Shown here piece after piece: positions 4,107-19,406 of a stretch of DNA of 20,322 nucleotides. The position numbers and the translations under genes are program-made. Below the pieces are notes generated by a model, which searched no databases, had not been told where the DNA came from, and saw only the letters and a program-made list of their open reading frames with translations. Location of the stretch: the sequence record NZ_CP096917.1, one strand, 5' to 3'. Position 1 is the stretch's first letter, and every line of letters starts with the position of its first letter. Source of the stretch: a plasmid.

Positions 4107-4214
4107 TTTTACTCTGATACAACAACGGCTAATCGGCAGGGGTGTTCTGTGAAGAGGCACTATTGAAGGGCAAGCCGGAGTGGTAGCCAGGCGCTGGATT
4201 TTGAATATTTGAAC

Positions 4215-4250
4215 GGGGGTCTTTCGCGTGCGAAAGACCCCCGTTTTTAC
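4215..4250. terminator. Bidirectional terminator-like hairpin built on a copy of the dispersed palindrome
   Basis: 28-bp perfect palindrome GGGGGTCTTTCGCGTGCGAAAGACCCCC at 4215-4242, followed by GTTTTTACTTT. Lies between convergent higA and the 90-aa minus-strand gene. Confidence 0.5.
4220..4237. repeat. Dispersed palindrome copy 1 (TCTTTCGCGTGCGAAAGA)
   Basis: Core TTTCGC-GT-GCGAAA. Confidence 0.8.
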
Positions 4251-4271
4251 TTTATTGGAAAACTGAGAAAA

Positions 4272-4291
4272 GACTTTCGCGCGCGAAAGTC
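4272..4291. repeat. Dispersed palindrome copy 2 (GACTTTCGCGCGCGAAAGTC)
   Basis: 20-bp perfect palindrome, 52 bp from copy 1. Confidence 0.8.
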
Positions 4292-4317
4292 GCGCGAGTT
4301 TTTGAGCACCACGATCC

Positions 4318-4590
4318 CTAGGATTGCTCCGATTGAACCGGCTGGGTGATCGCTTGAGGCGTGCCAAGCAAAGACGCCTTGTGCTGCGAAAGGAAAGACT
4401 TGAGCTTTGCCGGCTCGACACCGGATAGGCCAAGATCGACCAGGACTTTGAAAAGATCGTCCTTGGCCTTCGCCAGTTTCTTTGCCTCTTTTTCTTTTTC
4501 TCTAGCCTCGATGGCACGTAGCTTGGCCTGCATCTTTTGAATTTTGTCCTGGAGCTTCTGCTTCTCAGGGAGCGTCGTTTTTTCAGTCAT
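4318..4590 (-). CDS. Small Lys/Glu-rich coiled-coil protein (90 aa), divergent from oriT/trwA. Possible transfer or stability accessory DNA-binding protein.
   Basis: ATG at 4590 with a strong RBS AGGAG. Sequence MTEKTTLPEKQKLQDKIQKMQAKLRAIEAREKEKEAKKLAKAK... The longer ORF start at 4704 lacks an RBS. Confidence 0.6.
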   Translation of the reverse strand: MTEKTTLPEKQKLQDKIQKMQAKLRAIEAREKEKEAKKLAKAKDDLFKVLVDLGLSGVEPAKLKSFLSQHKASLLGTPQAITQPVQSEQS

Positions 4591-4699
4591 GTTGAGAACT
4601 CCTTGTTCTGTACCTCTTAGGATTTTACAGAACAAGTGAGCTTGGCGACAGTGGGGGACTTGGTGAAATCCGTCTTCTGATAGAGGTGGGCGGTGGGCT

Positions 4700-4986
4700 G
4701 TCATCTGGAGAGTTTGAGCTATCTTCGACAGGAGGCGACTCTAGCGGGTTGTCCACCTACGGCGGACGACCCGAAAAGGGAGATACCCCCTTCGGGGGCC
4801 CCAAAAATTTTTCCACACCATACGCAACTAGTAGTTGCATGGCTAAGTCATTGGTAAAAAAGAAGATTTTGTGTAGACAACGGGGCTGTGAGATACTTAA
4901 ATTGCTTTCATCATGAAAGCACAATAGCCGTTATAGATCAACAGGTTATTGCGTTTTTTAACGTAGTCACTATCATTGGAAACATT
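4700..4986. other. oriT: Candidate oriT (MOBF-type) upstream of trwA
   Basis: Lower-GC region between divergent genes. Contains inverted repeat GCTTTCAT C ATGAAAGC at 4904-4920, inverted repeat GCAACTA G TAGTTGC at 4824-4838 and hairpin CCCCC TTCG GGGGG at 4786-4798. ATAGCC / TATAG motifs at 4923-4940 are reminiscent of MOBF nic regions. The nic site is not assignable by eye. Confidence 0.5.
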
Positions 4987-5343
4987 ATGAGTCAGTCATC
5001 TATCCCATGCCGCTTCGATTCGAGCACCGCAGCCTTCCTGAAGGCGGAAGCGGCGCGCGAAGGCGTGTCTCAGTCGGAGTACATCCGGCGCATGGTAAGT
5101 AAGGGACTTTTGGTGCAGTCGCTAGAGGATGCAGTCTCGGAAATTCGCTCAGTTTCTCGGGCATCTGGGAGCGGCATAACCGAAGAAGGTTTCCGATTTT
5201 TGGCAACGAGTGTTCTTGAAGTCAGAAATCTTTTGCGCATAATTTCAGCAAAGAACTTCCCAACTGCTGTGACCGAAGCAAGGAAAGATGCAGAGGACGA
5301 AGTGAAGCGCCTTCTTGGCGATGGGGGTAGCAATGTCGGTTAG
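4987..5343 (+). CDS. TrwA/TraY-like ribbon-helix-helix relaxosome accessory protein
   Basis: 118 aa from ATG 4987. N-terminal RHH-like stretch (CRFDSSTAAFLKAEAAREGVSQSEYIRRMVSKGL). Immediately precedes the coupling protein and relaxase genes. Confidence 0.6.
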   Translation: MSQSSIPCRFDSSTAAFLKAEAAREGVSQSEYIRRMVSKGLLVQSLEDAVSEIRSVSRASGSGITEEGFRFLATSVLEVRNLLRIISAKNFPTAVTEARKDAEDEVKRLLGDGGSNVG

Positions 5344-7093
5344 AAGATCGACCAACACGGAGAACCTTGTACGTGGTGCGGATACTCTTCTGCACCAAGG
5401 GACGATGCTGGCAAAGGCCGCGCTTTGGGCTATCAGCTCAGGTGTTCTTGTTGGCTCTGTGGTGGTTTCAATCGGTGCCTCTCTCGTCACCACAGGCACT
5501 GAAAGGACGTTCGCTTACAAGCACATTGTCGCAAAGACAAAGGTATTTTTTTCACAGGAAAAGCACTTGGTTGATCTTGTCATCAACGGCAAAGAAGTGT
5601 CGCTTCCAGCCGACCAGGCTGCGATTGTCACAAGCGGTATTTTTGAGAAAGTGCGCGCGAGAGTTGCACTCGTCGGATTGTTCGGATTGATGGTTGGTGG
5701 TGCGACCTCTGGAGCCCTCGTTTTGTACTGGAGGCGGCGAGGAAGTAAGCAGGCCGAAGATGAATTTATCCGGGGCACTCGTCTCGTCGAAGGGCAACAG
5801 TTGGCGGGATTGATTCAGGCGGATAACAAAGAGAGCAAGATCACTATTGCGGGAGTGCCAACGCTTGCAGGTGGGGAGATGCTTCATACGATGATTTCGG
5901 GGGCAGTCGGAACCGGTAAATCCGTTTCGATTCTCGAAATTCTGGATAGCGTCAGGGCGCAAGGAAAGCGGGCGATTGTTTACGATCCGACAGGGGAGTT
6001 CACAGAGTATTACTACCGCGAAGGGCGGGATGTGATACTTAATCCGCTAGACGCAAGAAGCCCAAACTGGAACTTGTGGAGAGAGATAAGGAGCGACTTC
6101 GATTACCGTAGTTTTGCGACATCTTTGGTACAGGTAAAAAGCCAGACAGACCCATTTTTTGAACAGTCTGCACGGATCATCGCGGAAGAGCTTTTCAGAA
6201 AACTGGCTCAGATTGGCAGAGCGACGAACCAAGCTGTTTATGATGCAGCGGCCAAGCTGACATTACAGGAGCTTTTCGAGCTTTTGAAGGGAACCAGTGG
6301 GGCAAACTTGATTGATCCGGCTGGCGAGAGAACGGCGCTTTCTGTGCGCTCTGCTTTTCTGAATGCCATGAATGCTTTTCGTTATCTCCACGACGACGGC
6401 GAGGCGTTCTCAATCCGAGAATGGGTAGAAAACGACTCGGCTGATTCATGGCTCTTTATCCCATCTCGCGCTGATTACCATGAAGCGGTCAAACCGCTAA
6501 TCACCCTTTGGCTAGAGATCGCTACACGAGGTGTCATGAATCTGCCGCCGATTCGGGAGTCTCGGTTCTGGCTGGTGGTGGACGAGCTTCCCACCTTGCA
6601 AAAGATCGAGGCGCTGCAAACGCTCGTGACGGTAACCCGCAAGTATGGGATGTCCGGTGTATTCGGGATTCAGTCGGTTTCTCAGATGCGCGAGCTGTAC
6701 GGCAAGGACGGTGCGCAGACTGTTATGGGGATGTGCCAGACCTGGGTTGTGCTCCGTGTGGCGGATTCTGAAACAGCCAAGTACCTCTCCGAGACGCTTG
6801 GCCAAGCCGACATTCAGGAGAAGGATGAGGGCCTTTCCTTCGGCGCGGAATCCAACCGGGACGGGACAAATCTCGTCTCCAAACGGACAGAGCGCGCGAT
6901 TGTGCTGGCCTCGGAGATTCAGCACTTGCCCGACCTGGAGGGCTATATGCGGGTTCCTGGCCCGTATCCCGTGGCGAAGATCAAGCTCCAGTATCGTAAC
7001 CGGGAGAAGATTGCTGCGCCCTTTGTGCCGCGTCAGCAAGGCATGTTTGCGGCAGCGCCGGCCGAAGCCGTCGATGCCGATCCGTTCGCGTAG
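5321..7093 (+). CDS. Type IV coupling protein (TrwB/TraD family)
   Basis: Two N-terminal transmembrane segments. Walker A (GAVGTGKS). TraD/TrwB-like block LVVDELPTLQKI. The start is ambiguous among TTG 5315, ATG 5321 and ATG 5333. It overlaps the end of the trwA-like gene. Confidence 0.85.
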   Translation: MGVAMSVRRSTNTENLVRGADTLLHQGTMLAKAALWAISSGVLVGSVVVSIGASLVTTGTERTFAYKHIVAKTKVFFSQEKHLVDLVINGKEVSLPADQAAIVTSGIFEKVRARVALVGLFGLMVGGATSGALVLYWRRRGSKQAEDEFIRGTRLVEGQQLAGLIQADNKESKITIAGVPTLAGGEMLHTMISGAVGTGKSVSILEILDSVRAQGKRAIVYDPTGEFTEYYYREGRDVILNPLDARSPNWNLWREIRSDFDYRSFATSLVQVKSQTDPFFEQSARIIAEELFRKLAQIGRATNQAVYDAAAKLTLQELFELLKGTSGANLIDPAGERTALSVRSAFLNAMNAFRYLHDDGEAFSIREWVENDSADSWLFIPSRADYHEAVKPLITLWLEIATRGVMNLPPIRESRFWLVVDELPTLQKIEALQTLVTVTRKYGMSGVFGIQSVSQMRELYGKDGAQTVMGMCQTWVVLRVADSETAKYLSETLGQADIQEKDEGLSFGAESNRDGTNLVSKRTERAIVLASEIQHLPDLEGYMRVPGPYPVAKIKLQYRNREKIAAPFVPRQQGMFAAAPAEAVDADPFA

Positions 7094-7104
7094 GGGAAGA
7101 AACG

Positions 7105-10100
7105 ATGCTCTCCGCGAAGGTGATCGAGAACGCGCAACAGGCTGAACACTACTTCAGCCAGGACAACTACTACACGACCGAAGAAGGATTCGAGCAGTCC
7201 GCGTGGGCCGGTAAGGGCGCAGCGGCGCTGGGGTTGTCGGGTGGCGTTCATCGTGAGCAGTTCATGGAGCTGCTTGAGGGAAAGGTGGATGGCCAGGAGC
7301 TGGGCAAGTGGGTCAGGAACGAAGAGACTGGCCAGAAGGAGCGCGAACACCGCCCAGGAATAGACCTCACCTTTTCGGCCCCGAAAAGTGTTTCCTTGCT
7401 GGCTGAAGTCGCCGGCAACGAGGAAGTGAGCAAAGCCCATGATGTTGCGGTCGAGCGGGCCATTGCATACCTTGAACGTGTGGCCGCTCAGGCGCGGACT
7501 ACTGTTGATGGGGTTACGTCCCGAGAAGATACCGGCAACTTGGTCGTTGCCCAGTTTCGCCACGATACCAGCCGGGAACTTGATCCGCAGACCCATACCC
7601 ATGCGGTTGTTTTCAACCTTACCAAGCGTTCGGATGGTCAATGGCGCTCCCTTTCCAATGAGGAGTTGCTAGGCCACATCAAGGATGCCGGCGCCTACTA
7701 CCGCACCGAGCTGGCGGGGCAACTGTCTGCGCTGGGGTATGAAATCGAGCGCACGCACGCTGATGGGCGGTTCGAGGTAAAGGGCTTTACCAAGGAGCAG
7801 CTTGAGCACTTCAGCCAGCGCAGCGGGCAGATTGAGCATGCTTTGGCCGAGCGTGGGAAGAACCGTCAGACGGCTACTACCGAGGAAAAGCAGATGGCCG
7901 CCCTGGACACTCGCCAGGCGAAAAAAGAGGTGGATCGTGGCCCGCTGCGTGAGGAATGGCTTTCGCGTGCGAAAGATGTAGGGATCGAGTGGGACAAGAT
8001 ACCTCGTGACAAGGGCGTGACTTTCGCGCGCGAAAGTTCGGCAGAACTCTACCTCCGGGCTAAAGAGGCGGTTGATTACGCCACGAAGCACCTTAGCGAG
8101 CGGCAGGCAGCTTTTTCCGCAAAGGATCTGTATCGGCACGCCGTCGAGTTTGGGACTGGACGAACCACCATCCAGGCCATCGACAAGGCAATTCGTGAGT
8201 CCAAGAAGTCGGGCGACCTGATCCCGATCGGAGACAAGCAGGAACGACTGACCACCCGTGACGCTGTGACGGCAGAGCTGCGGATGCTGGATGCGCTCGA
8301 ACGCTCAAAGGGCGCGGTTTCTTCCGTGGTCGGCACCAACCGGCTAGATGCAAAGATCGAGGCGGCACAGAGCCGCTTGATCCGGGATGGCGTCATCGAT
8401 GCCCAGCTTAATGCCGGCCAGTTGGATGCAGCGAAACTGATCCTGGGCACCAATGATCGGTTTGTAGGCGTCCAGGGTTATGCCGGTACTGGCAAAACCA
8501 CAATGCTAAATGTGGTGAAGGCTGTTGCCGAAGAACAGGGATACGTGGTGCGTGGCCTCGCGCAAAGTGCTTCCGCTGCTGCCACGTTGGAGGCTGAAAC
8601 GGGGATCAAAAGCCAAACGGTGGAGAGCTTCCTCCTGGAGCGCCAGAGAGAGCGGGAAAAGGCCGAGAAAGAGGCGGAGCGCACCGCCAAGAGCAGTGAC
8701 AAGGACAAGCCAACCAGCCGGGATGTGATGGGGAATCGCTACCTGGAGATTCCGGGCGGAATGTTCAAGGAGCGGCAATTGTTGGTTGCTCGCGGAACCG
8801 TTACCAATGCGCTGGCCCTGGAAGCCGTGGACAGACTCCGCGAAATGAGGCCCAAAAACGCCTTGGCCAAAGAGGTGCGTGCCCATGCTCTTGCTACAGC
8901 CCGTGGCATGGTGAAGTGGGAGCGGGCAAGCACGACTGACCAAGTTCTTTTCAGAGCGGCCGAGGTGGCCTCCAAGGTGAAATCGCTTTTCCAAGGGGAG
9001 AAGCCACAGGAAGCAGCGAAGCCAAAGGGCGAAATCTGGACTGTTGATGAGGCCAGTTTGTTGGGGCAACGGGACATCAACCGCCTGTTGGCAGAGGCCG
9101 AGCGAGTCGGGGCCAGGGTTCAGTTCACGGGTGATGTTCGCCAGCTATCGGCTGTCAGCGCTGGCAAGCCGTTCGAGGTTATGCAAACGGCAGGTGGCAT
9201 GCAGACGGCCAAGATGACGGAGATTCACCGCCAGAAGAACGACCTACTCAAAGACACCGTTGCCGACATTATCGAGAAGCGCGAGCAGGATGCTTTCAAG
9301 AAGCTGGCCGGGAATACCGTCGAGCTGAAAGACAACGAGAAGTTGATAGCCCGCATCGTGGCGGATGTCCGCCAGGACGTTGGCCGGGAGATTCGGCACG
9401 AACTGTCTGGCGCTGGTGAAAAGTCCCACAAAGACACTTTGGTCATCACAGCCTTGAATGAAGACCGCCGGGCTATCAATAACGGCGTGCGGCAGGCGCT
9501 CAAGGAAGATGGCGTTATCTCTGGCCAGGCCCGTGATACCGAGGTGTTGGTTAATCGAGGCATGACCAAAGCGCAGGCATCCCACGCACAGAACTACCAC
9601 GAAGGCGACGTGGTGCGGTTTGGGCGTGACTATGAACGCCTCGGGGTGAAGGGTGGCGAGTATGCCCGCGTGGTTGGCGTGAGCGACCTTGGCACCGTAA
9701 AGCTGCAAAAAGCGGACGGGCAAACCCTGGACTGGCGACCCGCACAGACCTCAAAAATTGAGGTGTTCCATGCCGAGCGCCGGGAGCTGCAAGCCGGAGA
9801 CAAGATCAGATTCACGCGCAATGACAAGGATCGTGGCTTGAACAACGGCGATGTTGCCTATGTGAAAGCAATCAACGGCGACAAGGCCACGGTGCAGTTA
9901 AAGGGCAAGACCGTTGCGATTGATCTGCGCGAGGTCAAGCACCTGGACTACGCCTACGCATCCACGATCCATTCCAGCCAGGGGAAAACAGTGGACGCGA
10001 CCGCCTTCCACGTCCGGGGGAAGTCCGGCCAGGTCTTTGGCGACCGGGCCTTCTACGTTGGCGCAACCCGCTCTAGGCACGAGCTGCGCATCTACACCGA

Positions 10101-10215
10101 CGACAAAGACGCCGCATTGCGCGCTGTTTCCCGAGATCAGCACAAGGCGAGCGCATTGGAAGAGTTGAAGCAAGGCCAGAGCGCCGGCCGCCAGCGATCC
10201 GGGTATTCACGATAA
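7105..10215 (+). CDS. trwC: MOBF relaxase-helicase (TrwC/TraI family)
   Basis: 1036 aa. N-terminal relaxase motifs (GLDLTFSAPKSVS, RHDTSRELDPQTHTHAVVFN), C-terminal helicase Walker A (GYAGTGKTT) and TIHSSQGKTVD motif. Overall colinear with R388 TrwC. Confidence 0.93.
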   Translation: MLSAKVIENAQQAEHYFSQDNYYTTEEGFEQSAWAGKGAAALGLSGGVHREQFMELLEGKVDGQELGKWVRNEETGQKEREHRPGIDLTFSAPKSVSLLAEVAGNEEVSKAHDVAVERAIAYLERVAAQARTTVDGVTSREDTGNLVVAQFRHDTSRELDPQTHTHAVVFNLTKRSDGQWRSLSNEELLGHIKDAGAYYRTELAGQLSALGYEIERTHADGRFEVKGFTKEQLEHFSQRSGQIEHALAERGKNRQTATTEEKQMAALDTRQAKKEVDRGPLREEWLSRAKDVGIEWDKIPRDKGVTFARESSAELYLRAKEAVDYATKHLSERQAAFSAKDLYRHAVEFGTGRTTIQAIDKAIRESKKSGDLIPIGDKQERLTTRDAVTAELRMLDALERSKGAVSSVVGTNRLDAKIEAAQSRLIRDGVIDAQLNAGQLDAAKLILGTNDRFVGVQGYAGTGKTTMLNVVKAVAEEQGYVVRGLAQSASAAATLEAETGIKSQTVESFLLERQREREKAEKEAERTAKSSDKDKPTSRDVMGNRYLEIPGGMFKERQLLVARGTVTNALALEAVDRLREMRPKNALAKEVRAHALATARGMVKWERASTTDQVLFRAAEVASKVKSLFQGEKPQEAAKPKGEIWTVDEASLLGQRDINRLLAEAERVGARVQFTGDVRQLSAVSAGKPFEVMQTAGGMQTAKMTEIHRQKNDLLKDTVADIIEKREQDAFKKLAGNTVELKDNEKLIARIVADVRQDVGREIRHELSGAGEKSHKDTLVITALNEDRRAINNGVRQALKEDGVISGQARDTEVLVNRGMTKAQASHAQNYHEGDVVRFGRDYERLGVKGGEYARVVGVSDLGTVKLQKADGQTLDWRPAQTSKIEVFHAERRELQAGDKIRFTRNDKDRGLNNGDVAYVKAINGDKATVQLKGKTVAIDLREVKHLDYAYASTIHSSQGKTVDATAFHVRGKSGQVFGDRAFYVGATRSRHELRIYTDDKDAALRAVSRDQHKASALEELKQGQSAGRQRSGYSR
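7960..7975. repeat. Dispersed palindrome copy 3 (CTTTCGCGTGCGAAAG), inside trwC
   Basis: Encodes LSRAK within the relaxase-helicase linker. Confidence 0.8.
8019..8037. repeat. Dispersed palindrome copy 4 (GACTTTCGCGCGCGAAAGT), inside trwC
   Basis: Encodes VTFARES. 60 bp downstream of copy 3. Confidence 0.8.
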
Positions 10216-10224
10216 GGAGGAAGA

Positions 10225-11352
10225 ATGGAAAAACGATTCAGATTGACTTTGTTGGCTGGGGCGATGCTTGCCCTGTCGATGGGGGCTTACGGCCAGAAGA
10301 TGACCGACCAGGTTATCCAGCAGCAGAGGGCCGAGGCCATGAAAACCCCCTTTCAAGTTCGTCAGGAGAAGAACGAGGCCGATTACAAGAAGGCTAGGAG
10401 CTTCCTGGACGCCGGGAATTACACGGCGGCAATCCCCTACCTTCAGGCAGCGGCCGAACGTGACCACCTAGATTCAATACTTGAGCTGGGCATGATCTAT
10501 GAGGATGGGAAAGGGGTTCCCGTCAACATGGCTAAGGCACAGGAGTATTACGTTCGTGTAGCCGAACGGCACCCGGACATCACGCTAAAAATCAAGGCCG
10601 CGCAGCTCTTTTGTGGTGGCGAAGGGCTGTATGCCAATGATGGTGTGATCCGTGACCCTGAGCGCGGCTTGGCGATTCTGGCCAAAGAGTACAGCCGGGA
10701 ATGGAAGGTCGAAATGGACTGGTGGAAGTACGTGTGCTACACGCGGACGGCCAGCCCTGACCCCAAAAAAGCCGGGCAAATGCTCAATGAGGCAGCGAGT
10801 TATCTGACCGGCGGTGATCGGGATAACACCATCAACGACAAGGCGGTGAAGAAGGTCAAAGACGAGATTTTCAATCGGGTCTATGCCTTTCGTTTGTATG
10901 ACCGCGATGGAGCCTTGAAGAAGTACGGCGCGGCTGCCGAGGCCGGCGACAGCACGGCCCAGCGCGCACTGTACGAGGCATATAGCGATGGCCGCGGCGC
11001 ACCGCAGAGCAGGCAGCTTGCCTTTGAGTGGATCATGAAAGCCGCATCGACTGGCGATGGCTTTGCCGAAACCGTTGTCGGTGAAGCCTACCTGAATGGA
11101 TACACCCCCGTTGACCGCGATTACCAAGCGGCGATCCAGTGGCTCACGAAAGGCGCAGAGCATGGCCAGTGGCTTGCAGCCTGGATGTTGAGCGACCTCT
11201 ACAAAAAAGGTCTTGGTGGCAAGCCTGACAGCAGCCGCGCGCAATTTTGGGCGAACCGTTGCAACGAGCTGGGCGGGAAGTGCGGCGGACAGCGCCAGAC
11301 GGTTGCACCTGGTGCGCAAGGGTCGGCCATTAAGAGGGCTTTTCAGCAATGA
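10225..11352 (+). CDS. Exported Sel1-repeat (SLR/TPR-like) protein
   Basis: Signal peptide MEKRFRLTLLAGAMLALSMGAYG. Several Sel1-like repeats (e.g. LGMIYEDGKGVPVNMAKAQEYY, AEAGDSTAQRALYEAYSDGRG, GEAYLNGYTPVDRDYQAAIQWLTKGAEHG). RBS AAGGAGGA. Start is 9 bp after the trwC stop. Confidence 0.8.
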   Translation: MEKRFRLTLLAGAMLALSMGAYGQKMTDQVIQQQRAEAMKTPFQVRQEKNEADYKKARSFLDAGNYTAAIPYLQAAAERDHLDSILELGMIYEDGKGVPVNMAKAQEYYVRVAERHPDITLKIKAAQLFCGGEGLYANDGVIRDPERGLAILAKEYSREWKVEMDWWKYVCYTRTASPDPKKAGQMLNEAASYLTGGDRDNTINDKAVKKVKDEIFNRVYAFRLYDRDGALKKYGAAAEAGDSTAQRALYEAYSDGRGAPQSRQLAFEWIMKAASTGDGFAETVVGEAYLNGYTPVDRDYQAAIQWLTKGAEHGQWLAAWMLSDLYKKGLGGKPDSSRAQFWANRCNELGGKCGGQRQTVAPGAQGSAIKRAFQQ

Positions 11353-12503: not shown

Positions 12504-12512
12504 GGAAATTCA

Positions 12513-12872: not shown

Positions 12873-12883
12873 AGGGGGGAAAC

Positions 12884-13573
12884 ATGAAACGCACTATCAC
12901 AGCCGCCTTGCTTATCTCATTGGGCCTTGGCGCTCATGCGACGGATGCCCCTTCGGCCGAGCCGATCCCGGCAACGGAGGCCAGCAGCGGCGGCATCAAG
13001 TTCGACCAGGTAGAGAGTCGCGGGGCCATGTCTCTGCCAGCCGGCACCAAGTCTGTGCCCCTGTACGTGGATTTCCAGGGTAGCCCGAAGCTGACGCGCC
13101 AACTCTCCGAGCAACTGGAGGCGATGGGCTGGCAGGTGACGGATGACCGCAATGCCACCCACTCCCTGACGGCGAAGGGCGAACTTCACGTTTGGGGCAA
13201 GGGATACGGCCTTGGCAGTAGTTCCCGTGTCACGGCCACGCTGGCCAGCTTTGTCGAGGAAAACAAAGTGCCCACCAGGCCAAAGCCTGGCGGCCTGTTT
13301 GGTGCCCTTGGCTCCATGCGGGAGAGCTTCAATTCTGCTGTCTCCGGATCGCCGGATGGTTGGTGCCTTTCCGACCAATGCCGCTTTGTCTGGCAGACCG
13401 CTGTTATCACGATGACCTATCGCAGCGCCAATAAAGACCAGCGCCTTGACGTGTCCGTGCGTGCCTCCGGCGACGCCTTGAACCTTGATGCCGTGGTGGC
13501 CGAGGCTGTCCGCAATTCGTTCTCTGCCATCAAGGCAAGTCCCGATCCTGTTGCTTCTACTCAAACCATGTGA
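12884..13573 (+). CDS. Exported hypothetical protein (about 229 aa)
   Basis: Signal peptide MKRTITAALLISLGLGAHA-TD. Alternative start at 12869 overlaps the upstream stop. RBS GGGGGGAAA. Confidence 0.65.
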   Translation: MKRTITAALLISLGLGAHATDAPSAEPIPATEASSGGIKFDQVESRGAMSLPAGTKSVPLYVDFQGSPKLTRQLSEQLEAMGWQVTDDRNATHSLTAKGELHVWGKGYGLGSSSRVTATLASFVEENKVPTRPKPGGLFGALGSMRESFNSAVSGSPDGWCLSDQCRFVWQTAVITMTYRSANKDQRLDVSVRASGDALNLDAVVAEAVRNSFSAIKASPDPVASTQTM

Positions 13574-13587
13574 AAGGAAAACCAGCC

Positions 13588-14130
13588 ATGAAGATCAAGA
13601 ACCTTCTCTCCATCATCGCCGTTGCCGCAATCGCGCAAGGCGCATTTGCGGCCGAGATCGACGCCGTAACCCTCTCCCACGATGGCCGCATTCTGCGCGC
13701 TCAGGGAGCGCCGGCAGCCGTCCAGGTTGCGGCTTTCAGCAGTACGGCCCCGGACTCGGTGCCGGCGACGTGCAAGGTGTTTGACATGGCCGGCTTTCTG
13801 AACCGGGACGATGCCAAGCCTGCGCTGCCTGTGGTCGAGGGGGTTCCCTATGGTTCCCGTCTCGTTTCTGCCTGGCACGAAGCGGCCGGCATTGTCGGCC
13901 GCGCGCCGGACTCCATGTTTTTCTGCATGACCAAGGACGGTGAACGGATGTTCGGAGAGGGTACGAGCTTCAACCCGTCCTATGAGTACCGGAAGGCGGC
14001 CGGCGCAGCGCCGGAGCGCGGCCAGATCGTCAGTGTGATCGGCGGCAGTGTGGTGATCGGTGTTGTGTTCTGGAACCCGGTGACGCCGGTTGCCGAATCC
14101 AAGTACGTCTCCATGAACTTCGGCCGCTGA
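13588..14130 (+). CDS. Exported hypothetical protein (about 180 aa)
   Basis: Signal peptide MKIKNLLSIIAVAAIAQGAFA-AE. Alternative start at 13570 overlaps the upstream stop. RBS AAAGGAAA. Confidence 0.65.
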   Translation: MKIKNLLSIIAVAAIAQGAFAAEIDAVTLSHDGRILRAQGAPAAVQVAAFSSTAPDSVPATCKVFDMAGFLNRDDAKPALPVVEGVPYGSRLVSAWHEAAGIVGRAPDSMFFCMTKDGERMFGEGTSFNPSYEYRKAAGAAPERGQIVSVIGGSVVIGVVFWNPVTPVAESKYVSMNFGR

Positions 14131-14147
14131 CTTTCGCGCGCGAAAGT
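14129..14147. repeat. Dispersed palindrome copy 5 (GACTTTCGCGCGCGAAAGT)
   Basis: Overlaps the stop codon of the last exported-protein gene. Confidence 0.8.
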
Positions 14148-14157
14148 GGAGGCTGGC

Positions 14158-14177
14158 GACTTTCGCATGCGAAAGTC
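14158..14177. repeat. Dispersed palindrome copy 6 (GACTTTCGCATGCGAAAGTC, AT centre variant)
   Basis: 29 bp from copy 5. Upstream of the eamA-like gene. Confidence 0.8.
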
Positions 14178-14212
14178 TGCTGGCCAGTCTATCGACTATC
14201 CAAGGATTGAAA

Positions 14213-15112
14213 ATGAGTTCAGGCTTTGCTCTCGGTAACAACCGGCCTCAGTGGGCCGACTGGCATTTCGCCCTGCCGCTTCTTTTTGTGGTGCTCTACG
14301 GCTCTGGTTTCGTTGGGGCCAAGCTGGGGCTTCCCGATGCCGGCCCCTTTACCTTCCTCGCGCTGCGCTTTGCGCTGGCCTCGATCATCATGGTTGTGAT
14401 CGCCCTGGCCATCAAAGCACCGTGGCCAACCACCCCGAAAGAGTGGCTGCACATTGCCGGTGCCGGGTTCTTCGGTGTGGGGGTTTTTTCGGCTGCGGCT
14501 TTCTCCAGTATCGCGCTGGGTGTGCCGCCCGCCGTTTCCGCCCTGATCGTGGCGCTTAACCCCATCGTGGTGGCTTTGGCAGCGGGGCCGCTCCTGGGCG
14601 AGCGCACCAACTACCGCCAGCTCCTGGGGTTGCTGCTGGGCTTCTGCGGCGTTTATCTGGTCTTGCGGGATCGGCTTGGGGTCGATGCGGGCTATACCAC
14701 GGCGGTACTGTTGTCCGTGCTGGCCCTGCTGGGCCTGGCTGTCGGCAACCTGTACCAGAAAAAGCACTGCACCAGCATGAACCTTTTTACCGGGGGAGCC
14801 TTGCAGTGCTGCGTGTGCGCCCTGGCCATGAGTGCGGGCATGATGATCTTTGACGAAGGCCCGGTTCACTGGACGGCTGAATTCATGGTGGCTTGGTTCT
14901 GGATGGCCATTGCTGTTTCGATTGGGGCTGTCAGCATCCTCTACATCATGATCCGCCGCGCCGAGGTCAGCCGGGTGGCCAGTGTGTTTTTCCTGATGCC
15001 GGTTAGCGCCGCTGTGATTGCCTATGCACTCTTTGGCCAAGCACTGACGGCCAGCGCGTTCCTGGGCATGGGCGTTACGGTTGCCGGCGTGATGCTGGCC
15101 CAGCGTAGGTAA
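14213..15112 (+). CDS. EamA/DMT-superfamily transporter (10 TMS-type)
   Basis: About 300 aa with repeated hydrophobic helices typical of EamA (e.g. GVYLVLRDRLG, FWMAIAVSIGAVSILYIMIRR). ATG at 14213 with RBS AAGGA. The ORF tracker's TTG start at 14207 is rejected. Confidence 0.8.
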   Translation: MSSGFALGNNRPQWADWHFALPLLFVVLYGSGFVGAKLGLPDAGPFTFLALRFALASIIMVVIALAIKAPWPTTPKEWLHIAGAGFFGVGVFSAAAFSSIALGVPPAVSALIVALNPIVVALAAGPLLGERTNYRQLLGLLLGFCGVYLVLRDRLGVDAGYTTAVLLSVLALLGLAVGNLYQKKHCTSMNLFTGGALQCCVCALAMSAGMMIFDEGPVHWTAEFMVAWFWMAIAVSIGAVSILYIMIRRAEVSRVASVFFLMPVSAAVIAYALFGQALTASAFLGMGVTVAGVMLAQRR

Positions 15113-15119
15113 GCCTCAT

Positions 15120-15137
15120 TCGTCTATCGCCGTACAT
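15120..15137. repeat. Left 18-bp inverted repeat flanking the RHH gene (TCGTCTATCGCCGTACAT)
   Basis: 17 of 18 positions form an inverted repeat with 15401-15418. Ends 12 bp before the RHH gene start. Confidence 0.75.
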
Positions 15138-15149
15138 TGGGAGAGAAGC

Positions 15150-15401
15150 ATGGAAAACCAACTTTTGGCCCCAGAGGCTGGCCAGGCAGAGCCGAAAGCG
15201 AAGCCGAGCAAGCGCCGGCGTGGCTCCATCTACAAAGACAGGCAGGTAGTGAGTTTGCGGCTTCCAGAGGGCTTGCACGCCGATCTACTGGCCTTTGCCG
15301 ACGAGCAGCAGGTGGTTTTGAATACGTACATCCTCGGACTGGTGGAGGCTGACTTGGCCGAGCGCCGGAAACTTTCGCGTGCGAAAGCCGGGAAAAAGTG
15401 A
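15150..15401 (+). CDS. Ribbon-helix-helix (CopG/Arc/ParG-like) DNA-binding protein
   Basis: 83 aa. Flexible basic N-terminus, then VVSLRLPEGLHADLLAFADEQQVVLNTYILGLVEADL (beta-alpha-alpha RHH pattern). RBS GGGAGAGAAG. Confidence 0.7.
   Translation: MENQLLAPEAGQAEPKAKPSKRRRGSIYKDRQVVSLRLPEGLHADLLAFADEQQVVLNTYILGLVEADLAERRKLSRAKAGKK
15371..15387. repeat. Dispersed palindrome copy 7 (ACTTTCGCGTGCGAAAG), inside the 3' end of the RHH gene
   Basis: Encodes KLSRAKAG. Confidence 0.8.
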
Positions 15402-15418
15402 TGTACCGCGATAGACGA
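15401..15418. repeat. Right 18-bp inverted repeat flanking the RHH gene (ATGTACCGCGATAGACGA)
   Basis: Begins at the last base of the RHH stop codon. Confidence 0.75.
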
Positions 15419-15426
15419 GTCCGGCC

Positions 15427-15445
15427 GACTTTCGCGCGCGAAAGT
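15427..15445. repeat. Dispersed palindrome copy 8 (GACTTTCGCGCGCGAAAGT)
   Basis: Shares a 22-bp identical stretch, including the 3' flank GTTCG, with copy 4. Confidence 0.8.
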
Positions 15446-15480
15446 TCGTCCGTGTCGGTGACACTGAAGCGAGGCGGGAC

Positions 15481-15894
15481 ATGAAAGACCGATGCCACGA
15501 TGAAGCAATGGCCGAGATGTTCAAGGAAGACCCAGCCTTTGCGGTCGAGCTGGTAAACAGCATCCTTGACGATGGCGACCAGGACGATTTGCAGATTGCC
15601 TTTCGGCAGATTGACAAGGCCGGGCTTTTTGACCGTGCCGGCGTGCTGTACGAGGTGGCTTGTGATGTCATTGGGGCGATCATCGCCCACTACTCCGAAG
15701 CACTCGCCCAAGAGCGCGGGAAGCCGGTTCCCGATGCTGCGGCCGTGGAACGGATCGAGGCCGCCAAGCGCGCCTTGCGGCTTGAGCGCGACGAGCTGGA
15801 CACCTCGAATGCAGAGGCAATCAAGTCAGTGATTCAGAAGTATGGGCCACAGGCGCGGGAACTCTACCAAGCCGGTAATGGGAGGCCGGTGTGA
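15481..15894 (+). CDS. Hypothetical acidic protein (137 aa). N-terminal stretch resembles 'addiction module antidote' proteins but lacks an evident HTH.
   Basis: EDPAFAVELVNSILDDGDQDDLQIAFRQIDKAG resembles the N-terminal region of ParE/RelE-partner antidote proteins. C-terminal part is a predicted coiled coil. Stop overlaps the next start (GTGA). Confidence 0.6.
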   Translation: MKDRCHDEAMAEMFKEDPAFAVELVNSILDDGDQDDLQIAFRQIDKAGLFDRAGVLYEVACDVIGAIIAHYSEALAQERGKPVPDAAAVERIEAAKRALRLERDELDTSNAEAIKSVIQKYGPQARELYQAGNGRPV

Positions 15895-16097
15895 AGTGTC
15901 CTTGCTGCGGTGGTGCCGAGCTTGTCCGTGATACCCGCGACATGCCCTATGCTTACAAAGGCGAAACGACCGCTGTTCTGGCTGTAACAGGAGACTTCTG
16001 CCCCGCCTGCGGCGAAGTCATCTTGGATCGGGAGAATGGCGACCGTTACATGCGCGAAATATCGTTCTTCTCGAAGGCTGTGGACGCCAGGCGCTGA
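15891..16097 (+). CDS. Stand-alone YgiT-type (MqsA N-terminal-like) zinc-ribbon protein, 68 aa
   Basis: MKCPCCGG...DFCPACGE matches the CxxC...CxxC YgiT/MqsA zinc-finger domain (MKCPVC...YTFRG...C..C). No HTH domain. GTG start translationally coupled to the upstream ORF. Confidence 0.6.
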   Translation: MKCPCCGGAELVRDTRDMPYAYKGETTAVLAVTGDFCPACGEVILDRENGDRYMREISFFSKAVDARR

Positions 16098-16117
16098 CTT
16101 TCGCGCGCGAAAGTCAG
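16094..16117. repeat. Dispersed palindrome copy 9 (CTGACTTTCGCGCGCGAAAGTCAG, 24-bp perfect)
   Basis: Overlaps the stop codons of both convergent genes (zinc-ribbon ORF and recombinase). Confidence 0.8.
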
Positions 16118-16668
16118 GCTGGCTTGTCCATCAGCCGGGAAATGGTGGACGGGTGGACGTTGAACAACCTGGCCACGTCAGCCGCCGACTTCTCCCCGCT
16201 GGCCACCATCCGGCGCGCTTCCTCTTTTTGTTCCTGGTTGAGCTTGCTACGTCGGCCGCCGATCCGGCCCTTCTGTCTGGCGACATCGAGGCCGGCGCGC
16301 GTCCTCTCCCGAGTCATCGCCCGCTCGAACTCCGCGAAAGCCCCCAGCATCTGCATCATCATCCGCCCGGCCGGTGTCGTTGTGTCGATGGCCTCGGTGA
16401 TGCTGCGAAAGCCAGCCTTCGCCAGCTCGATGCAATCCATGACGTGCAACAGATCCTTGAGTGACCGCGAGAGCCGATCCAGCTTCCAGACCACAAGGAC
16501 ATCGCCGGGCCGCAGTTGCTCTAACGCCCGGTGCAACTCCGGCCGATCCCAGCGCCCGCCAGAAGCCTTTTCCGTGTAAAGGCGTTCACATCCGGCCTGC
16601 CGTAGCGCAGCCTCTTGAATAGCTGTGTCCTGATCATCGGTGGACACACGGGCATAGCCGATCAACAT
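16114..16668 (-). CDS. Serine recombinase, small Gin/Hin-invertase / resolvase type (184 aa)
   Basis: MLIGYARVSTDDQ..., VVWKLDRLSRS, GRIGGRRSKL. C-terminal HTH (AADVARLFNVHPSTISRLM). Confidence 0.88.
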   Translation of the reverse strand: MLIGYARVSTDDQDTAIQEAALRQAGCERLYTEKASGGRWDRPELHRALEQLRPGDVLVVWKLDRLSRSLKDLLHVMDCIELAKAGFRSITEAIDTTTPAGRMMMQMLGAFAEFERAMTRERTRAGLDVARQKGRIGGRRSKLNQEQKEEARRMVASGEKSAADVARLFNVHPSTISRLMDKPA

Positions 16669-16686
16669 CTGTCGTGCCGCCTTCGG

Positions 16687-17094
16687 TCAGTAGCCGTAGG
16701 GGTCGCGGATTTGCCGAATGACCAGGAAGACCACTAGGGCGATCAAGCCGGCTTCAAGTCCGTACTTGAAAGCGTTGCCATTCCACCAGACTTCTTGAGG
16801 AAAGCGAAAGGCCAGCGTGTCGGGGTCGGCCCCGCCGTGCGCGATGCTGTCGAGGACTTTCCACCAGCCAGGCCACAAGGCTGCACCCGTTCCGCTGATG
16901 AGTACCGGGAAGCTGGGCTTGAGGGGTGTCCAGCAGAGTGCGCCGGCAATCAGGGCAACGACGACGCTATAGCCAACCGCGCCGAGGGTGACTTGGAAAT
17001 CCGCTCCGATGGAGCGGGAGAAATTGAAGATGGCGATCAGGGCAATGCCCAGCCCGATCAATAGCGCCGCTACCCGTGGGTCCATGTCTCTCAT
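16687..17094 (-). CDS. Small integral membrane protein (135 aa), co-transcribed upstream of the recombinase
   Basis: 3-4 hydrophobic helices. RBS AAGGAG 5 nt before ATG. 18-bp gap to the recombinase start. Confidence 0.6.
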   Translation of the reverse strand: MRDMDPRVAALLIGLGIALIAIFNFSRSIGADFQVTLGAVGYSVVVALIAGALCWTPLKPSFPVLISGTGAALWPGWWKVLDSIAHGGADPDTLAFRFPQEVWWNGNAFKYGLEAGLIALVVFLVIRQIRDPYGY

Positions 17095-17097
17095 GAG

Positions 17098-17180
17098 TGC
17101 TCCTTTCTGTTGCGAAAACGTATTGCGTTAATTTTATGTTTCGCAACAGGTTTGTGCAATGCTATTTGCAAGGCATTTGG
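17098..17180. promoter_or_regulatory. AT-rich repeat region (TTGCGAAA / TTTCGCAA / TTGTGCAA / TTTGCAA half-sites): promoter and/or recombination (res-like) site of the membrane-protein/recombinase operon
   Basis: Inverted repeat GTTGCGAAA...TTTCGCAAC at 17108-17145, plus further TTGYGCAA copies. Confidence 0.4.
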
Positions 17181-17248
17181 GGCATCCCTGTCATTTTCTG
17201 AAGGCGACTGCACGGAATATCAGGAGTCGGCTGCACTGCCTGTCGGGA

Positions 17249-17632
17249 CTACTTCTTGCAGGCGCGTTCCATGTGCAGAACGGCGTCAAGCAATGCCATT
17301 GAATCGCAAGCGTCAGAAGCGTAGACCGTGCGCGTCCTTGGGTCATAGGACACCATGACGAACGGCTCTGGTGTGCGTTCGGCACTCCGGGGCGCTTGAC
17401 GCTTGGAGCGGTAGGCTCGGCATACCTCCCTCTTTTCGGCAAGCTGCTGGCCGATCTTCTTCCAGTCGAAGAGATAGTCGGGATACAACCGGCGCATGTC
17501 GCGCTTATCCTGCGGCTCAAGCGTGTAATTGCGAATGCGCATGATGTTGTAATTGCTTCTGCCGACCTTGACCGTGAGGTAGCAAAAGCCTTTTCTGGTC
17601 GTGACGAAGGCGCTGCTTGGCTTGCGGCTCAT
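17249..17632 (-). CDS. Hypothetical protein (127 aa) translationally coupled downstream of resolvase 2
   Basis: ATGA start/stop overlap with the upstream resolvase. No recognisable family. Confidence 0.5.
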   Translation of the reverse strand: MSRKPSSAFVTTRKGFCYLTVKVGRSNYNIMRIRNYTLEPQDKRDMRRLYPDYLFDWKKIGQQLAEKREVCRAYRSKRQAPRSAERTPEPFVMVSYDPRTRTVYASDACDSMALLDAVLHMERACKK

Positions 17633-18201
17633 CGTTGCTCGCTCCCGCTTTGCAGCGCAGCGTATAGAGCCGTCTTGCTCACCTTAAGCCGCGTGGCGGC
17701 CTCGCGGACGTTCAGCCCGTTTGCGATGTGCTCCCGCGCCCGCTGTAGCTTGTCTGCGGTGACGACCGGCTTGCGCCCGCCCTTGCGACCGCGTGCGGCA
17801 GCAGCGGTCAACCCAGCTTTGGTGCGCTCGCGGATCAGGTCGCGCTCAAACTCGGCGAGGGCCGCAAAAATCCCGAAGACCAGCTTGCCGGGGGCCGTGG
17901 TGGTGTCGATAGCTGCGCCTTGTCCCGTTAGCACCTTGAGGCCGACACCGCGTGCGGCCAAGCCTTGCACGGTATTGACCAAGTGAACCATCGAGCGGCC
18001 TAAGCGGTCGAGTTTCCACACGACGAGGGCATCACCTTCGCGCAAATAGGCCAGCGCTGCATCCAGACCTTGCCGCTCTTTTTTCGCGCCGCTGATGATG
18101 TCCTCAAATACCCGCTCGCAGCCCGCCTTGCGCAGCGCGTCTTTCTGTAAATCGACGTGCTGACTCTCCGTCGATACCCGCGCATAGCCGATCAGTGCCA
18201 T
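17629..18201 (-). CDS. Serine recombinase / resolvase (TnpR-like, about 190 aa)
   Basis: MALIGYARVSTESQ, VVWKLDRLGRS, C-terminal HTH (VREAATRLKVSKTALYAAL). Start taken at ATG 18201. The ORF tracker's 18222 is an N-terminal extension. Confidence 0.85.
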   Translation of the reverse strand: MALIGYARVSTESQHVDLQKDALRKAGCERVFEDIISGAKKERQGLDAALAYLREGDALVVWKLDRLGRSMVHLVNTVQGLAARGVGLKVLTGQGAAIDTTTAPGKLVFGIFAALAEFERDLIRERTKAGLTAAAARGRKGGRKPVVTADKLQRAREHIANGLNVREAATRLKVSKTALYAALQSGSEQR

Positions 18202-18204
18202 TGC

Positions 18205-18300
18205 CGCCCCTTTTGTCCGCATTTCCGTCCGCCTATCTTAATGTCCGACAACCCATTAAACAAGCATGTTGCCGGACAATGTCCGGCTTGACCGGCTAAT
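18205..18300. promoter_or_regulatory. res-like site upstream of resolvase 2
   Basis: Repeated TGTCCG / CGGACA elements, including the perfect inverted repeat CCGGACA A TGTCCGG at 18282-18296 and TGTCCGACA at 18242-18250. This is the usual Tn3-family res position, immediately 5' of tnpR. Confidence 0.55.
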
Positions 18301-18416
18301 GATCGTTTTACGGACAGGGCGGCGCATTGGAACAGCGAACCGACTTAAGCCGGAACCCCAGATTTTTCCGGCCAGTGGCTAACGGTCGTGTCGCCGCCAC
18401 CATCTGACGGCTGGCG

Positions 18417-18698
18417 TCAGCCGAAAAGCTCGCTATGCGAGCCAAGCCGCGCCAGTCGCAGAGTGTCGGAATCGGACTTGCGGTAAATCAGCAGCAGGTC
18501 GGGCTTGATGTGGCACTCGCGGTAGCCCGCCCAATCGCCGGAAAGATCATGGTCGCGGTGGCGCGCGTCCAACGGCTGATCGGTCGCCAGCGCGAGCAGC
18601 ACCGGCTTGAGCGCGTCATCGAGCGTGGCACGGTGCTGTCCCTTGGCCTCGCGCTTGAAATCGCGCTTGAACGCGGACGAACGATCAATCGTCCGCAT
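18417..18698 (-). CDS. relE: RelE/YafQ-family toxin
   Basis: 93 aa. Motif ECHIKPDLLLIYRKSDSDTLRLARLGSHSELF is typical of YafQ/RelE. Overlaps the antitoxin gene. Confidence 0.82.
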   Translation of the reverse strand: MRTIDRSSAFKRDFKREAKGQHRATLDDALKPVLLALATDQPLDARHRDHDLSGDWAGYRECHIKPDLLLIYRKSDSDTLRLARLGSHSELFG

Positions 18699-18954
18699 GC
18701 AGGTCTGCCATTAGGTTGTCCACGCTGGCGAACTTCTTGCCCTTGCCCGCTTCCAGTTCGGCAATCGCCTTTTTGGTCGTGGCGTTGGGCACCTTCACGT
18801 CAAAAGGCAAGCGGTGCTCATCGGCGATGCGCAGCATCAACAGGCGGATGGCGTCGGAAATCGACAAGCCCATTGCTTCGAGTGCGCTGGCGGCGCGTTC
18901 CTTGGTGTTGGTGTCGATGCGGGCGCGGACGTAGGTGTCGGCTGTAGTGCTCAT
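18685..18954 (-). CDS. relB: RelB/DinJ-family antitoxin
   Basis: Start ATG 18954 with RBS GGAGA. MSTTADTYVRARIDTNTKERAASALEAMGLSISDAIRLLMLRIA matches the DinJ/RelB fold. Confidence 0.8.
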   Translation of the reverse strand: MSTTADTYVRARIDTNTKERAASALEAMGLSISDAIRLLMLRIADEHRLPFDVKVPNATTKKAIAELEAGKGKKFASVDNLMADLHADD

Positions 18955-19341
18955 GGCAATTCTCCGGGAATGGTTCAAACACCCATATTGTAGTCACAAT
19001 GCGACCACATAACAAGGCCGCATCGTGCAGGGGAGTTCTGAGCAATTCCGGTTCTTCGCGGCGCTTCGTGTATAGGACTGCTGACGCGGCCCGTTCAGAA
19101 GTCGGCTGCACACCGGGCGGCCAGCCCCGTGAACTGGTGCAGTCGTCTTCTGAAAATGACAATCCCCGGAGGCGTTGCATAAACGACCGTTTGCGCACCG
19201 TGCCTGCATGGGCGTTCCCCCGGCCGGATGGCCGGGGTCGGGCTGTCGTGCTGCGCATCGAGCCGCCTGCCGGCGTCTCGCCCCTTCGGGCTTCCATCCC
19301 TAACGTCTCCGCGCCGTTGGCGCTGCGCGCTCCGCTTGCCG

Positions 19342-19363
19342 AGACTTTCGCGCGCGAAAGTCT
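19342..19363. repeat. Dispersed palindrome copy 10 (AGACTTTCGCGCGCGAAAGTCT, 22-bp perfect), 16 bp upstream of the parA -35
   Basis: Lies in the parA promoter region. Confidence 0.8.
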
Positions 19364-19378
19364 AAGACGCCGACATGC

Positions 19379-19406
19379 TTGCATGATTTACGATTTTCTG
19401 TAAAAT
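19379..19406 (+). promoter_or_regulatory. parA promoter (TTGCAT-N16-TAAAAT)
   Basis: -35 at 19379-19384 and -10 at 19401-19406, preceded by TG. RBS AAGGA. ATG at 19439. Confidence 0.5.

Follow-up and report, generated by a model that had tools for sequence, protein, structure and literature searches.

Which protein, if any, reads a family of near-identical palindromes that is dispersed over a small plasmid? The plasmid sequence NZ_CP096917.1 (20,322 nucleotides; "the window" refers below to this whole stretch) raises this question by its repeated core TTTCGCNNGCGAAA (TTTCGC-NN-GCGAAA). An earlier note on this DNA had interpreted the palindromes as operators of a KorB/ParB-like global regulator or as parS sites. 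This idea is upheld in part. The same 16-bp site is found 18 to 20 times on plasmids that encode a ParB with a KorB domain together with a KorA-like protein, and paired cores lie at parAB operons; however, the cognate protein is not encoded on this plasmid. We therefore lean towards the view that the ten sites are orphan sites of the parS type or of the type of the KorB operator (OB), which would be bound in trans by the ParB/KorB-like clamp protein of a helper plasmid.

The core occurs exactly ten times in the window, compared to 0.02 copies expected from dinucleotide-preserving shuffles, and starts at positions 4222, 4275, 7961, 8022, 14132, 14161, 15373, 15430, 16099 and 19346. When up to two mismatches were allowed, just two further weak matches were found in the window, which is the chance level. 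The central dinucleotide is GC in six sites, GT in three and AT in one. Since the core is preceded by C and followed by G in all ten copies, the invariant unit is the 16-bp palindrome CTTTCGCNNGCGAAAG (CTTTCGC-NN-GCGAAAG), for which base composition predicts 8.5e-5 copies per window; CTTTCGCGCGCGAAAG gives the 16-mer form of the site set beside the variants with GT and AT centres. The 14 specified positions are perfect in all ten sites, and no other palindrome of the form 6+N+6 recurs in the window. In positional order, the perfect dyads measure 34, 20, 16, 18, 18, 20, 16, 18, 24 and 22 bp, a span of 16 to 34 bp, where 18 to 24 bp had been described as usual. Eight sites form four pairs, whose members start 53, 61, 29 and 57 bp apart. 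The GT copy lies 5' of the GC copy in three of the pairs, an order that is statistically weak because it rests on just these three. The spacers of the four pairs are unrelated, and the pairs are therefore neither a longer repeat unit nor a miniature inverted-repeat transposable element; the unit is the palindrome itself. With 0.49 sites per kb, the window has the highest density seen, compared to 0.10-0.28 per kb on other replicons.

Seven of the ten sites are intergenic, while intergenic sequence makes up 16.6% of the window (binomial P = 2.6e-4, with the sites treated as independent). The three intragenic copies comprise two in the relaxase/helicase linker of trwC and one in the 3' end of a gene for an 83-aa ribbon-helix-helix (RHH) protein. 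They are read in different frames, and together with the mostly intergenic locations this led us to reject coding constraint as the cause of the sites. The earlier note had described the family correctly as to copy number, centres, the order within three pairs and the placement in promoter regions, in gaps between convergent genes and inside trwC and the RHH gene.

The same sites are found on a group of larger plasmids, to which a homologue of the 83-aa RHH protein, traced in PLSDB, led us. pAOVO01 from Acidovorax sp. JS42, a MOBF/MPF_F plasmid of 72.7 kb, contains 20 exact sites (0.28 per kb) and an RHH gene, and its ParB (Ajs_4223, WP_011798665.1) serves as the reference (100%) for the following identities. 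The Ralstonia plasmid pB1903 (91.2 kb; RHH present; ParB 56% identical) has 18 sites or 0.20 per kb, and the plasmid of Massilia sp. H6 (172.8 kb; ParB 35% identical, KorA-like protein 49% identical) likewise has 18, which amounts to 0.10 per kb. The deletion derivative pIPM3H3-GES5 (37.0 kb), whose ParB is 100% identical, has nine sites (0.24 per kb). The RHH gene is absent from the last two plasmids, as judged by tblastn and inspection of the open reading frames (ORFs). The window plasmid with its 20.3 kb has the RHH gene and ten sites and encodes no ParB.

In pAOVO01 the genes are ordered ParA, a 430-aa ParB and a repressor of the KORA/TrfB family (Ajs_4222), which scores 47.6 bits to the KORA family. 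The ParB comprises a ParB_N domain (65.9 bits) and the KorB DNA-binding domain PF08535 (24.8 bits at a cut-off of 22.3), while a KorB_C domain was not detected in it by the domain search. It aligns with the structures of Spo0J, ParB and Noc across the CTP-binding (cytidine triphosphate) motif GERRxRA, which reads GERRFRA here; the alignment with the KorB structure 8qa8 is weak (22 bits). In pAOVO01, pB1903 and the Massilia sp. H6 plasmid the par operon is preceded by a palindrome, 55-61 nt ahead of its first gene, and in pAOVO01 and pB1903 the KorA-like gene likewise has one directly in front of it. A BLAST search with the palindrome against 72,556 PLSDB plasmids returned 20 records, in which multi-copy matches are essentially confined to plasmids with a ParB of the pAOVO01 clade. 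The network had been assigned to a plasmid family characterized by TrfA and MOBF. This assignment does not hold, as the sites belong to a different family of larger plasmids, as elements of its regulon or centromere.

The core is also found beside parAB operons of other kinds. We scanned metagenomes for paired sites 15-45 bp apart, which yielded at least 120 loci, and clustered the neighbouring ORFs without prior assumptions. Among the 120 loci listed, the top neighbour families are ParB-like proteins (20 loci), a large ParA (15 loci) and a small cassette of ParA and ParB (9-11 loci). The small cassettes contain two to four sites 20-80 bp upstream of parA (at -23 and at -60 to -80), one further site where parA meets parB and another inside or behind parB, and in the large-ParA family the sites bracket parB. 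Sites flank parAB in the L025-type cassettes and in about 30 metagenome loci among the matches listed. Several of the metagenome ParBs carry KorB, HTH_ParB or KorB_C domains, and their alignment reveals the ParB_N motifs as well as a shared V/L-S-K motif in the DNA-binding region. In at least three ParAB lineages that are unrelated to each other, the core thus goes together with ParB, as would be expected of a parS-type site.

Dense arrays were seen in other surroundings as well. A sequence from Burkholderia singularis (L073, positions 2482-2639) carries six tandem copies of ACTTTCGCACGCGAAAGT with a period of 28 bp beside genes for a tyrosine integrase and a PIN-domain protein; this array is centromere-like and is located on a genomic island. 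Similar arrays are present in L183 (9 copies with a period of 20 bp) and L180 (13 copies in 12.7 kb). In pAOVO01-type elements a site is often situated about 50 nt inside genes for type IV secretion or periplasmic proteins (traU, trbC and others). There it encodes the end of a signal peptide, '..A(T)FARES(L/M/V)A', and the DNA site is apparently accommodated within the coding of the signal peptide (L123 at 7725, 11037 and 12035; L124 at 15754; L088 at 3703, 4701 and 7863; L015 at 2995; L023 at 5653).

The window is a complete circular TrfA/ParA-ParG/MOBF mobilizable plasmid of 20.3 kb. It starts 22 bp before trfA and ends 21 bp after parG, its end-to-start junction is spanned by the metagenome contigs L142 and L253-L260, and the Cupriavidus plasmid L001 shows the same order of parA, parG, hairpin, ribosome-binding site and rep as the parG/trfA junction of the window. 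In public assemblies the exact ParA of the window is indexed in 311 blocks; the contigs concerned measure 20-31 kb, and none is longer than 50 kb. According to Pfam the plasmid encodes TrfA with 22-bp iterons, KfrA, HigBA, a NikA/TrwA-like RHH protein, the coupling protein TrwB, a TrwC of 1036 aa (MOBF relaxase), Sel1-repeat and secreted proteins, EamA, the HicB-like 83-aa RHH protein, a 137-aa ORF, an MqsA-N-like zinc ribbon, two serine recombinases, YafQ/DinJ and its own type Ib partition pair ParA and ParG (parA-parG, 19439-20301, + strand). It is called mobilizable because no mating-pair-formation genes were found on it by Pfam. Rfam revealed no known RNA in the window.

Neither Pfam nor six-frame tblastn detected a homologue of ParB (ParB_N), KorB or KorA (KORA) in the window, as the earlier note had stated for ParB and KorB, and the variants of 20-31 kb have none either. 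Its suggestion that the binder is encoded elsewhere on the replicon fails, since the window is the whole plasmid, with its junction spanned by the contigs named above, and no relative of 20-31 kb encodes a ParB.

Several other proteins of the small plasmids were considered as binders and rejected. The L001 orthologue of ParG is 95% identical, yet the parA promoter of L001 has no palindrome. A different repeat, TTTACGA-N4-TCGTAAA (window 19384-19410, there TTTACGA-N4-(C/T)(T/C)GTAAA), surrounds the -10 region of parA and is conserved with L001; this repeat and not the palindrome is likely to be the ParG operator or centromere element. KfrA is identical in L001, L261 and L262 (82% to that of the window), each of which has a single site located elsewhere on the plasmid. 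HigA and MqsA-N-like proteins do not co-occur with the sites, and an 83-aa Xre-type helix-turn-helix protein has no counterpart in the window, in pAOVO01, in pB1903 or in the Massilia plasmid. On several small plasmids of Comamonadaceae and Cupriavidus and on 30-kb variants of the window plasmid, a single palindrome abuts the stop codon of the gene for this same Xre-type protein (L001 at 1111, L261 at 5704, L262 at 23566 and L253 at 15182).

The sequence comparisons suggest that a larger helper plasmid probably includes the small plasmid in its own system of control or segregation. Each CTTTCGC-NN-GCGAAAG would be a binding or loading site for a dimeric ParB with an N-terminal CTPase fold, the GERRxRA motif and a KorB-type helix-turn-helix. 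This binder, along with ParA and the KorA/TrfB-like repressor, would be encoded by pAOVO01-type MOBF/MPF_F plasmids of Burkholderiales and probably also by related, chromosomally integrated elements that resemble integrative and conjugative elements. In a cell with such a helper, its ParB would occupy the ten sites of the small plasmid, and because the GERRxRA motif is intact it would probably load as a CTP-dependent clamp, as does KorB of RK2 at OB. Via site 10, about 15 bp upstream of the -35-like TTGCAT, parA-parG could be silenced in step with the helper regulon, and the same could apply to the eamA-RHH operon (sites 5 and 6) and the operon of the 137-aa ORF (site 8); read-through of trwC may be impeded. 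Alternatively or in addition, the small plasmid may be coupled to the ParA-driven segregation of the helper. We infer the binding, the action in trans and its consequences, and likewise which outcome (repression, partition or titration) would follow. A helper relationship is plausible because trwB and trwC (5315-10215, + strand) encode counterparts of the pAOVO01 proteins TraD and TrwC (41% and 48% identity), and because the small plasmid lacks mating-pair genes. A comparison of the transfer origin with that of pAOVO01 gave a short, suggestive similarity only, around a GCAAC...GTTGC repeat.

A second palindrome points in the same direction. The replication origin (oriV) of the window contains the perfect 17-bp palindrome CTATTGACGGTCAATAG exactly once (1046-1062), in the stretch that separates trfA from the iterons; it is kept in L142 and all variants. 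The pAOVO01-type plasmids contain a second dispersed palindrome, AAACTATTGACSGTCAATAGTTT, in four to six copies, which has the same sequence as CTATTGACGGTCAATAG; this family, written as CTATTGACSGTCAATAG, is present once in the oriV of the window. In pAOVO01 and the Massilia plasmid the distance between one copy of AAACTATTGACSGTCAATAGTTT and the 16-bp site at the promoter of the par operon is about 70-110 bp, and in pB1903 the flanks of the second palindrome are consistently changed to GGGTTGACGGTCAACCC. The oriV (966-1173) is located downstream of trfA and comprises four iterons with ATTGACCTTTGAC at 966, 1111, 1134 and 1156; ATTGAC is common to all four and follows CT in two of them. The iterons at 966 and 1134 share the octamer CTATTGAC with the palindrome. 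A half-iteron read by TrfA was nevertheless rejected, since the palindrome is also present in L001, where it follows an unrelated rep gene and the iterons are unrelated as well. Elimination and the analogy to the KorA operator (OA) of RK2 make CTATTGACGGTCAATAG a candidate for the operator of a KorA/TrfB-like repressor; the window lacks such a repressor, and the palindrome would be read by the KorA-like one of the helper.

The individual sites differ in their surroundings. Site 1 (4212-4245, core 4222-4235, GT centre) is a perfect palindrome of 34 bp, whose hairpin and T-run form an intrinsic terminator for higBA on the + strand. Site 2 (4272-4291, 20 bp, GC centre) reads GACTTTCGCGCGCGAAAGTC, followed on the - strand by TTTTCTCAGTTTT, and is the terminator of the convergent 90/128-aa gene; it is kept in pRWC72a, L126, L142 and L203. 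The segment with higBA, the terminator pair and the gene for a 90-aa coiled-coil protein (3147-4826) is 91% identical to an accessory region of the IncP-1 plasmid pRWC72a (L002). There the stem of the site 1 hairpin is kept, while the inner CGC is changed and the loop is different (GACTTTC-TCACAC-GAAAGTC). Sites 3 (7960-7975, 16 bp, GT centre) and 4 (8020-8037, 18 bp, GC centre) are located in trwC, where the former codes for LSRAK at the relaxase/helicase junction and the latter for TFARES; site 3 is kept in L195 and in L253-L256.

Site 5 (14130-14147, 18 bp, GC centre) lies in the gap between a 186-aa ORF and eamA, and site 6 (14158-14177, 20 bp, AT centre) follows 29 bp after it upstream of the eamA-RHH operon. 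Site 7 (15372-15387, 16 bp, GT centre) again codes for LSRAK, at the 3' end of the 83-aa RHH gene. Site 8 (15428-15445, 18 bp, GC centre) precedes the ATG of the 137-aa ORF by 38 nt; in some plasmid variants it is absent or changed, and indel breakpoints are located directly beside it. Site 9 (16094-16117, 24 bp, GC centre) is situated where the MqsA-N-like gene and the gene for resolvase 1 converge, between their stops. Site 10 (19342-19363, 22 bp, GC centre), about 85 bp upstream of the ATG of parA, is kept in all variants and is missing from the homologous parA promoter of L001.

Module boundaries of the plasmid variants tend to fall close to the sites. L228 and L255 contain insertions of about 280-345 bp that adjoin site 8 (window 15447-15481), and a deletion of the MqsA-N-like gene in variants (window 15876-16082) ends 17 bp from site 9. 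Two pAOVO01 proteins, an antidote-type protein beside a RelE/ParE toxin and a small protein upstream of a zeta toxin, match the N-terminal part of the 137-aa ORF (15481-15894) with 60-64% identity. In the window this ORF is paired with a truncated MqsA that consists of the zinc ribbon only.

We also looked for ACTTTCGCNNGCGAAAGT in genomes, with one genome per species. At least 120 matches were obtained and all counts are lower bounds. The matches listed fall into two groups, namely Muribaculaceae on the one hand and Burkholderiales with some Gammaproteobacteria on the other. Those of the second group are mostly located on stretches with conjugative-transfer or mobile-element genes (TrwC, TraN/TraU, RadC, SSB). 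Betaproteobacterial genomes have a maximum of three to four tiles each among the matches listed, and the comparison with the density in chromosomes is semi-quantitative. A metagenome-assembled Muribaculum genome accounts for 9 tiles among 82 matches listed, with a different class of flanks. In Muribaculaceae (L003, L014, L017, L055 and many others) a hairpin with the same core, TTCAACTTTCGCWWGCGAAAGTTGAA, is frequent and resembles repetitive extragenic palindromic (REP) elements. It appears to be unrelated to the plasmid sites, as flanks and centres differ.

How do other explanations compare with a helper-encoded ParB? The strongest internal candidate for the binder is the 83-aa RHH protein (15150-15401, + strand), the only DNA-binding protein that is common to the window and the pAOVO01 family (37% identity). 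Two RHH dimers per palindrome of 16-20 bp would then constitute a self-contained regulon, and sites 5 and 6 indeed precede the eamA-RHH operon. We nevertheless consider this unlikely, as the Massilia sp. H6 plasmid with its 18 sites reveals no RHH protein by tblastn (E < 0.1) and no RHH-like ORF after mobF, the nine sites of pIPM3H3-GES5 likewise come without one, and the core arrays in dozens of metagenome contigs accompany two-gene parAB cassettes that include no RHH-like gene. The earlier proposal that one of the RHH proteins is the binder is thereby weakened for the 83-aa protein, and for ParG by the L001 orthologue. The sites might also be relics without present function, inherited with the MOBF/accessory module from a pAOVO01-like ancestor. 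Nine of the ten do lie in the MOB/accessory half (4.2-16.1 kb), small plasmids that share just the ParA/ParG/KfrA backbone have one site, and the deletion derivative pIPM3H3-GES5 retains its sites. With TrwB and TrwC only 41-48% identical to the pAOVO01 family, however, the divergence is old, and yet all ten sites are perfect at 14 positions. Their positions are not homologous (none is found inside trwC of pAOVO01), their density is the highest seen, and the intergenic enrichment points to selection, which makes relics an improbable explanation.

It is hardly probable, too, that the palindromes act as nucleic-acid structures (terminators, hairpins in RNA or single-stranded DNA) or are a REP-like selfish repeat that needs no dedicated protein. 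Such a role would suit sites 1 and 2, the palindrome that always abuts the stop of the Xre-type gene in L001, L261, L262 and the 30-kb variants, and the REP-like hairpin of Muribaculaceae with the same core. In the terminator test, however, a hairpin with a T-run was found at sites 1 and 2 only, and eight of the ten sites are without a T-tract. Moreover it is the primary sequence and not mere pairing that is conserved across elements with unrelated flanks, the few tiles per betaproteobacterial genome are mostly on conjugative or mobile-element stretches, and the repeat of Bacteroidales has other flanks and centres. The two serine recombinases (16114-16668 and 17629-18222) would offer yet another role, that of crossover sites with a 2-bp stagger at the palindrome centre. 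The centres with their symmetric (GC, AT) and asymmetric (GT) variants, the position of site 9 next to the stop codon of resolvase 1 and the indel breakpoints a few bp from site 8 in L228 and L255 could be read in this way. Most centres are symmetric, however, and recombination would be directionless and would scramble or delete essential genes including trwC. Accessory subsites or repeats are lacking, the conserved half-site of 7-9 bp is short compared to the 12-13 bp of res/hix-type sites, plasmids carry many such sites at par operons, and the extra site of L228 lies 100 bp inside the insertion and not at its edge. Crossover sites are therefore very improbable.

Some observations weigh against a ParB supplied by a helper, the reading that we prefer. 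Eleven conjugative plasmids of Betaproteobacteria in PLSDB, and pB1903 as well, combine the sites with a homologue of the RHH protein, and a site is found about 80-90 nt upstream of its start in pAOVO01, L028, L030 and pB1903; because of this co-occurrence and the site some 85 nt upstream, it keeps a small probability of being the binder. Sites 1 and 2 are good convergent intrinsic terminators, which concerns two of the ten sites. The relatives of the window plasmid are 85-98% identical and thus too close, so that the conservation of sites among them is weakly informative and poor evidence of footprints. Finally, ten centromere or operator sites of a helper on a second replicon are expected to cause partition incompatibility or titration of the repressor, which makes stable co-residence less obvious; this may be a cost, or it may be the point.

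The latter leads to a bolder version of the helper-encoded ParB, which we regard as quite possible without favouring it. The widespread family of mobilizable plasmids of 20-31 kb may have evolved ten orphan ParB-clamp sites and one orphan operator for a KorA-like repressor in order to plug into, or manipulate, helpers of the pAOVO01 type. Their own genes might stay silent while the helper is repressed, they might hitch-hike on its ParA, or they might titrate its repressor and thereby trigger transfer. Such manipulation would be regulatory parasitism by mimicry of centromeres and operators.

The known system that is most instructive here is the KorB/OB and KorA/OA network of IncP-1 plasmids. 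KorB of RK2 loads at OB (TTTAGCSGCTAAA, 13 bp), slides as a CTP-dependent clamp and is locked at promoters by KorA, whose operator OA is GTTTAGCTAAAC (PMC11790492). Like these operators, the sites described here are short, perfect and dispersed palindromes, T-rich outside and GC-rich inside, in promoter-proximal, intragenic or distal positions. The ParB of the pAOVO01 family also combines a CTPase fold with a KorB domain, its parA-parB operon stands beside a KorA/TrfB-like repressor, and a second palindrome lies near the first at the par-operon promoter. In contrast to IncP-1, the sequences are TTTCGC-NN-GCGAAA (14 or 16 bp with a 2-bp centre) and CTATTGACSGTCAATAG instead of TTTAGCSGCTAAA and GTTTAGCTAAAC, the ParB is only distantly related to KorB, as its score to 8qa8 indicates, with no KorB_C domain detected, the backbone is MOBF/MPF_F, and the window replicon has the sites but none of the proteins.

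There is likewise some resemblance to the chromosomal parS TGTTTCACGTGAAACA, a perfect 16-bp palindrome with a T-rich 5' end, whose half-site TTTCAC is similar to TTTCGC; the spacing of the half-sites differs by 2 bp. As in ParABS systems, core sites cluster beside parAB in many contigs, whereas those of the window are spread over a replicon with a different, ParG-type partition system. The parS sites of Burkholderiales secondary replicons (Bsr) are 16-bp palindromes with a central CG (PMC5450999), while the window sites have GC, GT or AT centres and a different core. The KorB operator of RA3 was rejected as a match, as the paper on RA3 KorB contains no matching operator. By analogy, the window sites would work like the IncP-1 network and like parS centromeres, but they are not members of the IncP-1 regulon. 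In the literature searched in full text there was no paper with these palindromes or on the regulation of pAOVO01-type plasmids, and the matches were E2F sites and primers.

Salmonella genomic island 1 (SGI1) and mobilizable genomic islands (MGIs) carry AcaCD/SetCD boxes, which are activator boxes at few promoters on integrated islands. They resemble the plasmid studied here as non-self-transmissible elements with cis sites for a trans-acting protein of the helper, by which their genes respond to that helper. In contrast to them, the window presents ten sites of a repressor/centromere (ParB) type on an autonomous plasmid, and the link to a helper is one that we infer.

If the proposed role is true, CTTTCGC-NN-GCGAAAG would be a new sequence class of parS/OB sites, the core of which is used by divergent ParAB families from Campylobacterota-like cassettes to Burkholderiales megaplasmids. 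A KorA/KorB-like global network would then exist in a MOBF/MPF_F family that carries catabolic, metal-resistance and carbapenemase (GES-5) genes. Less ordinary is a common mobilizable plasmid that has the sites and one OA-like site without the proteins. It raises the question whether satellite plasmids read, exploit or sabotage the ParB-clamp regulon and the centromere of a helper, which would bear on plasmid incompatibility, on the co-transfer of resistance genes and on the design of orthogonal ParB/parS tools.

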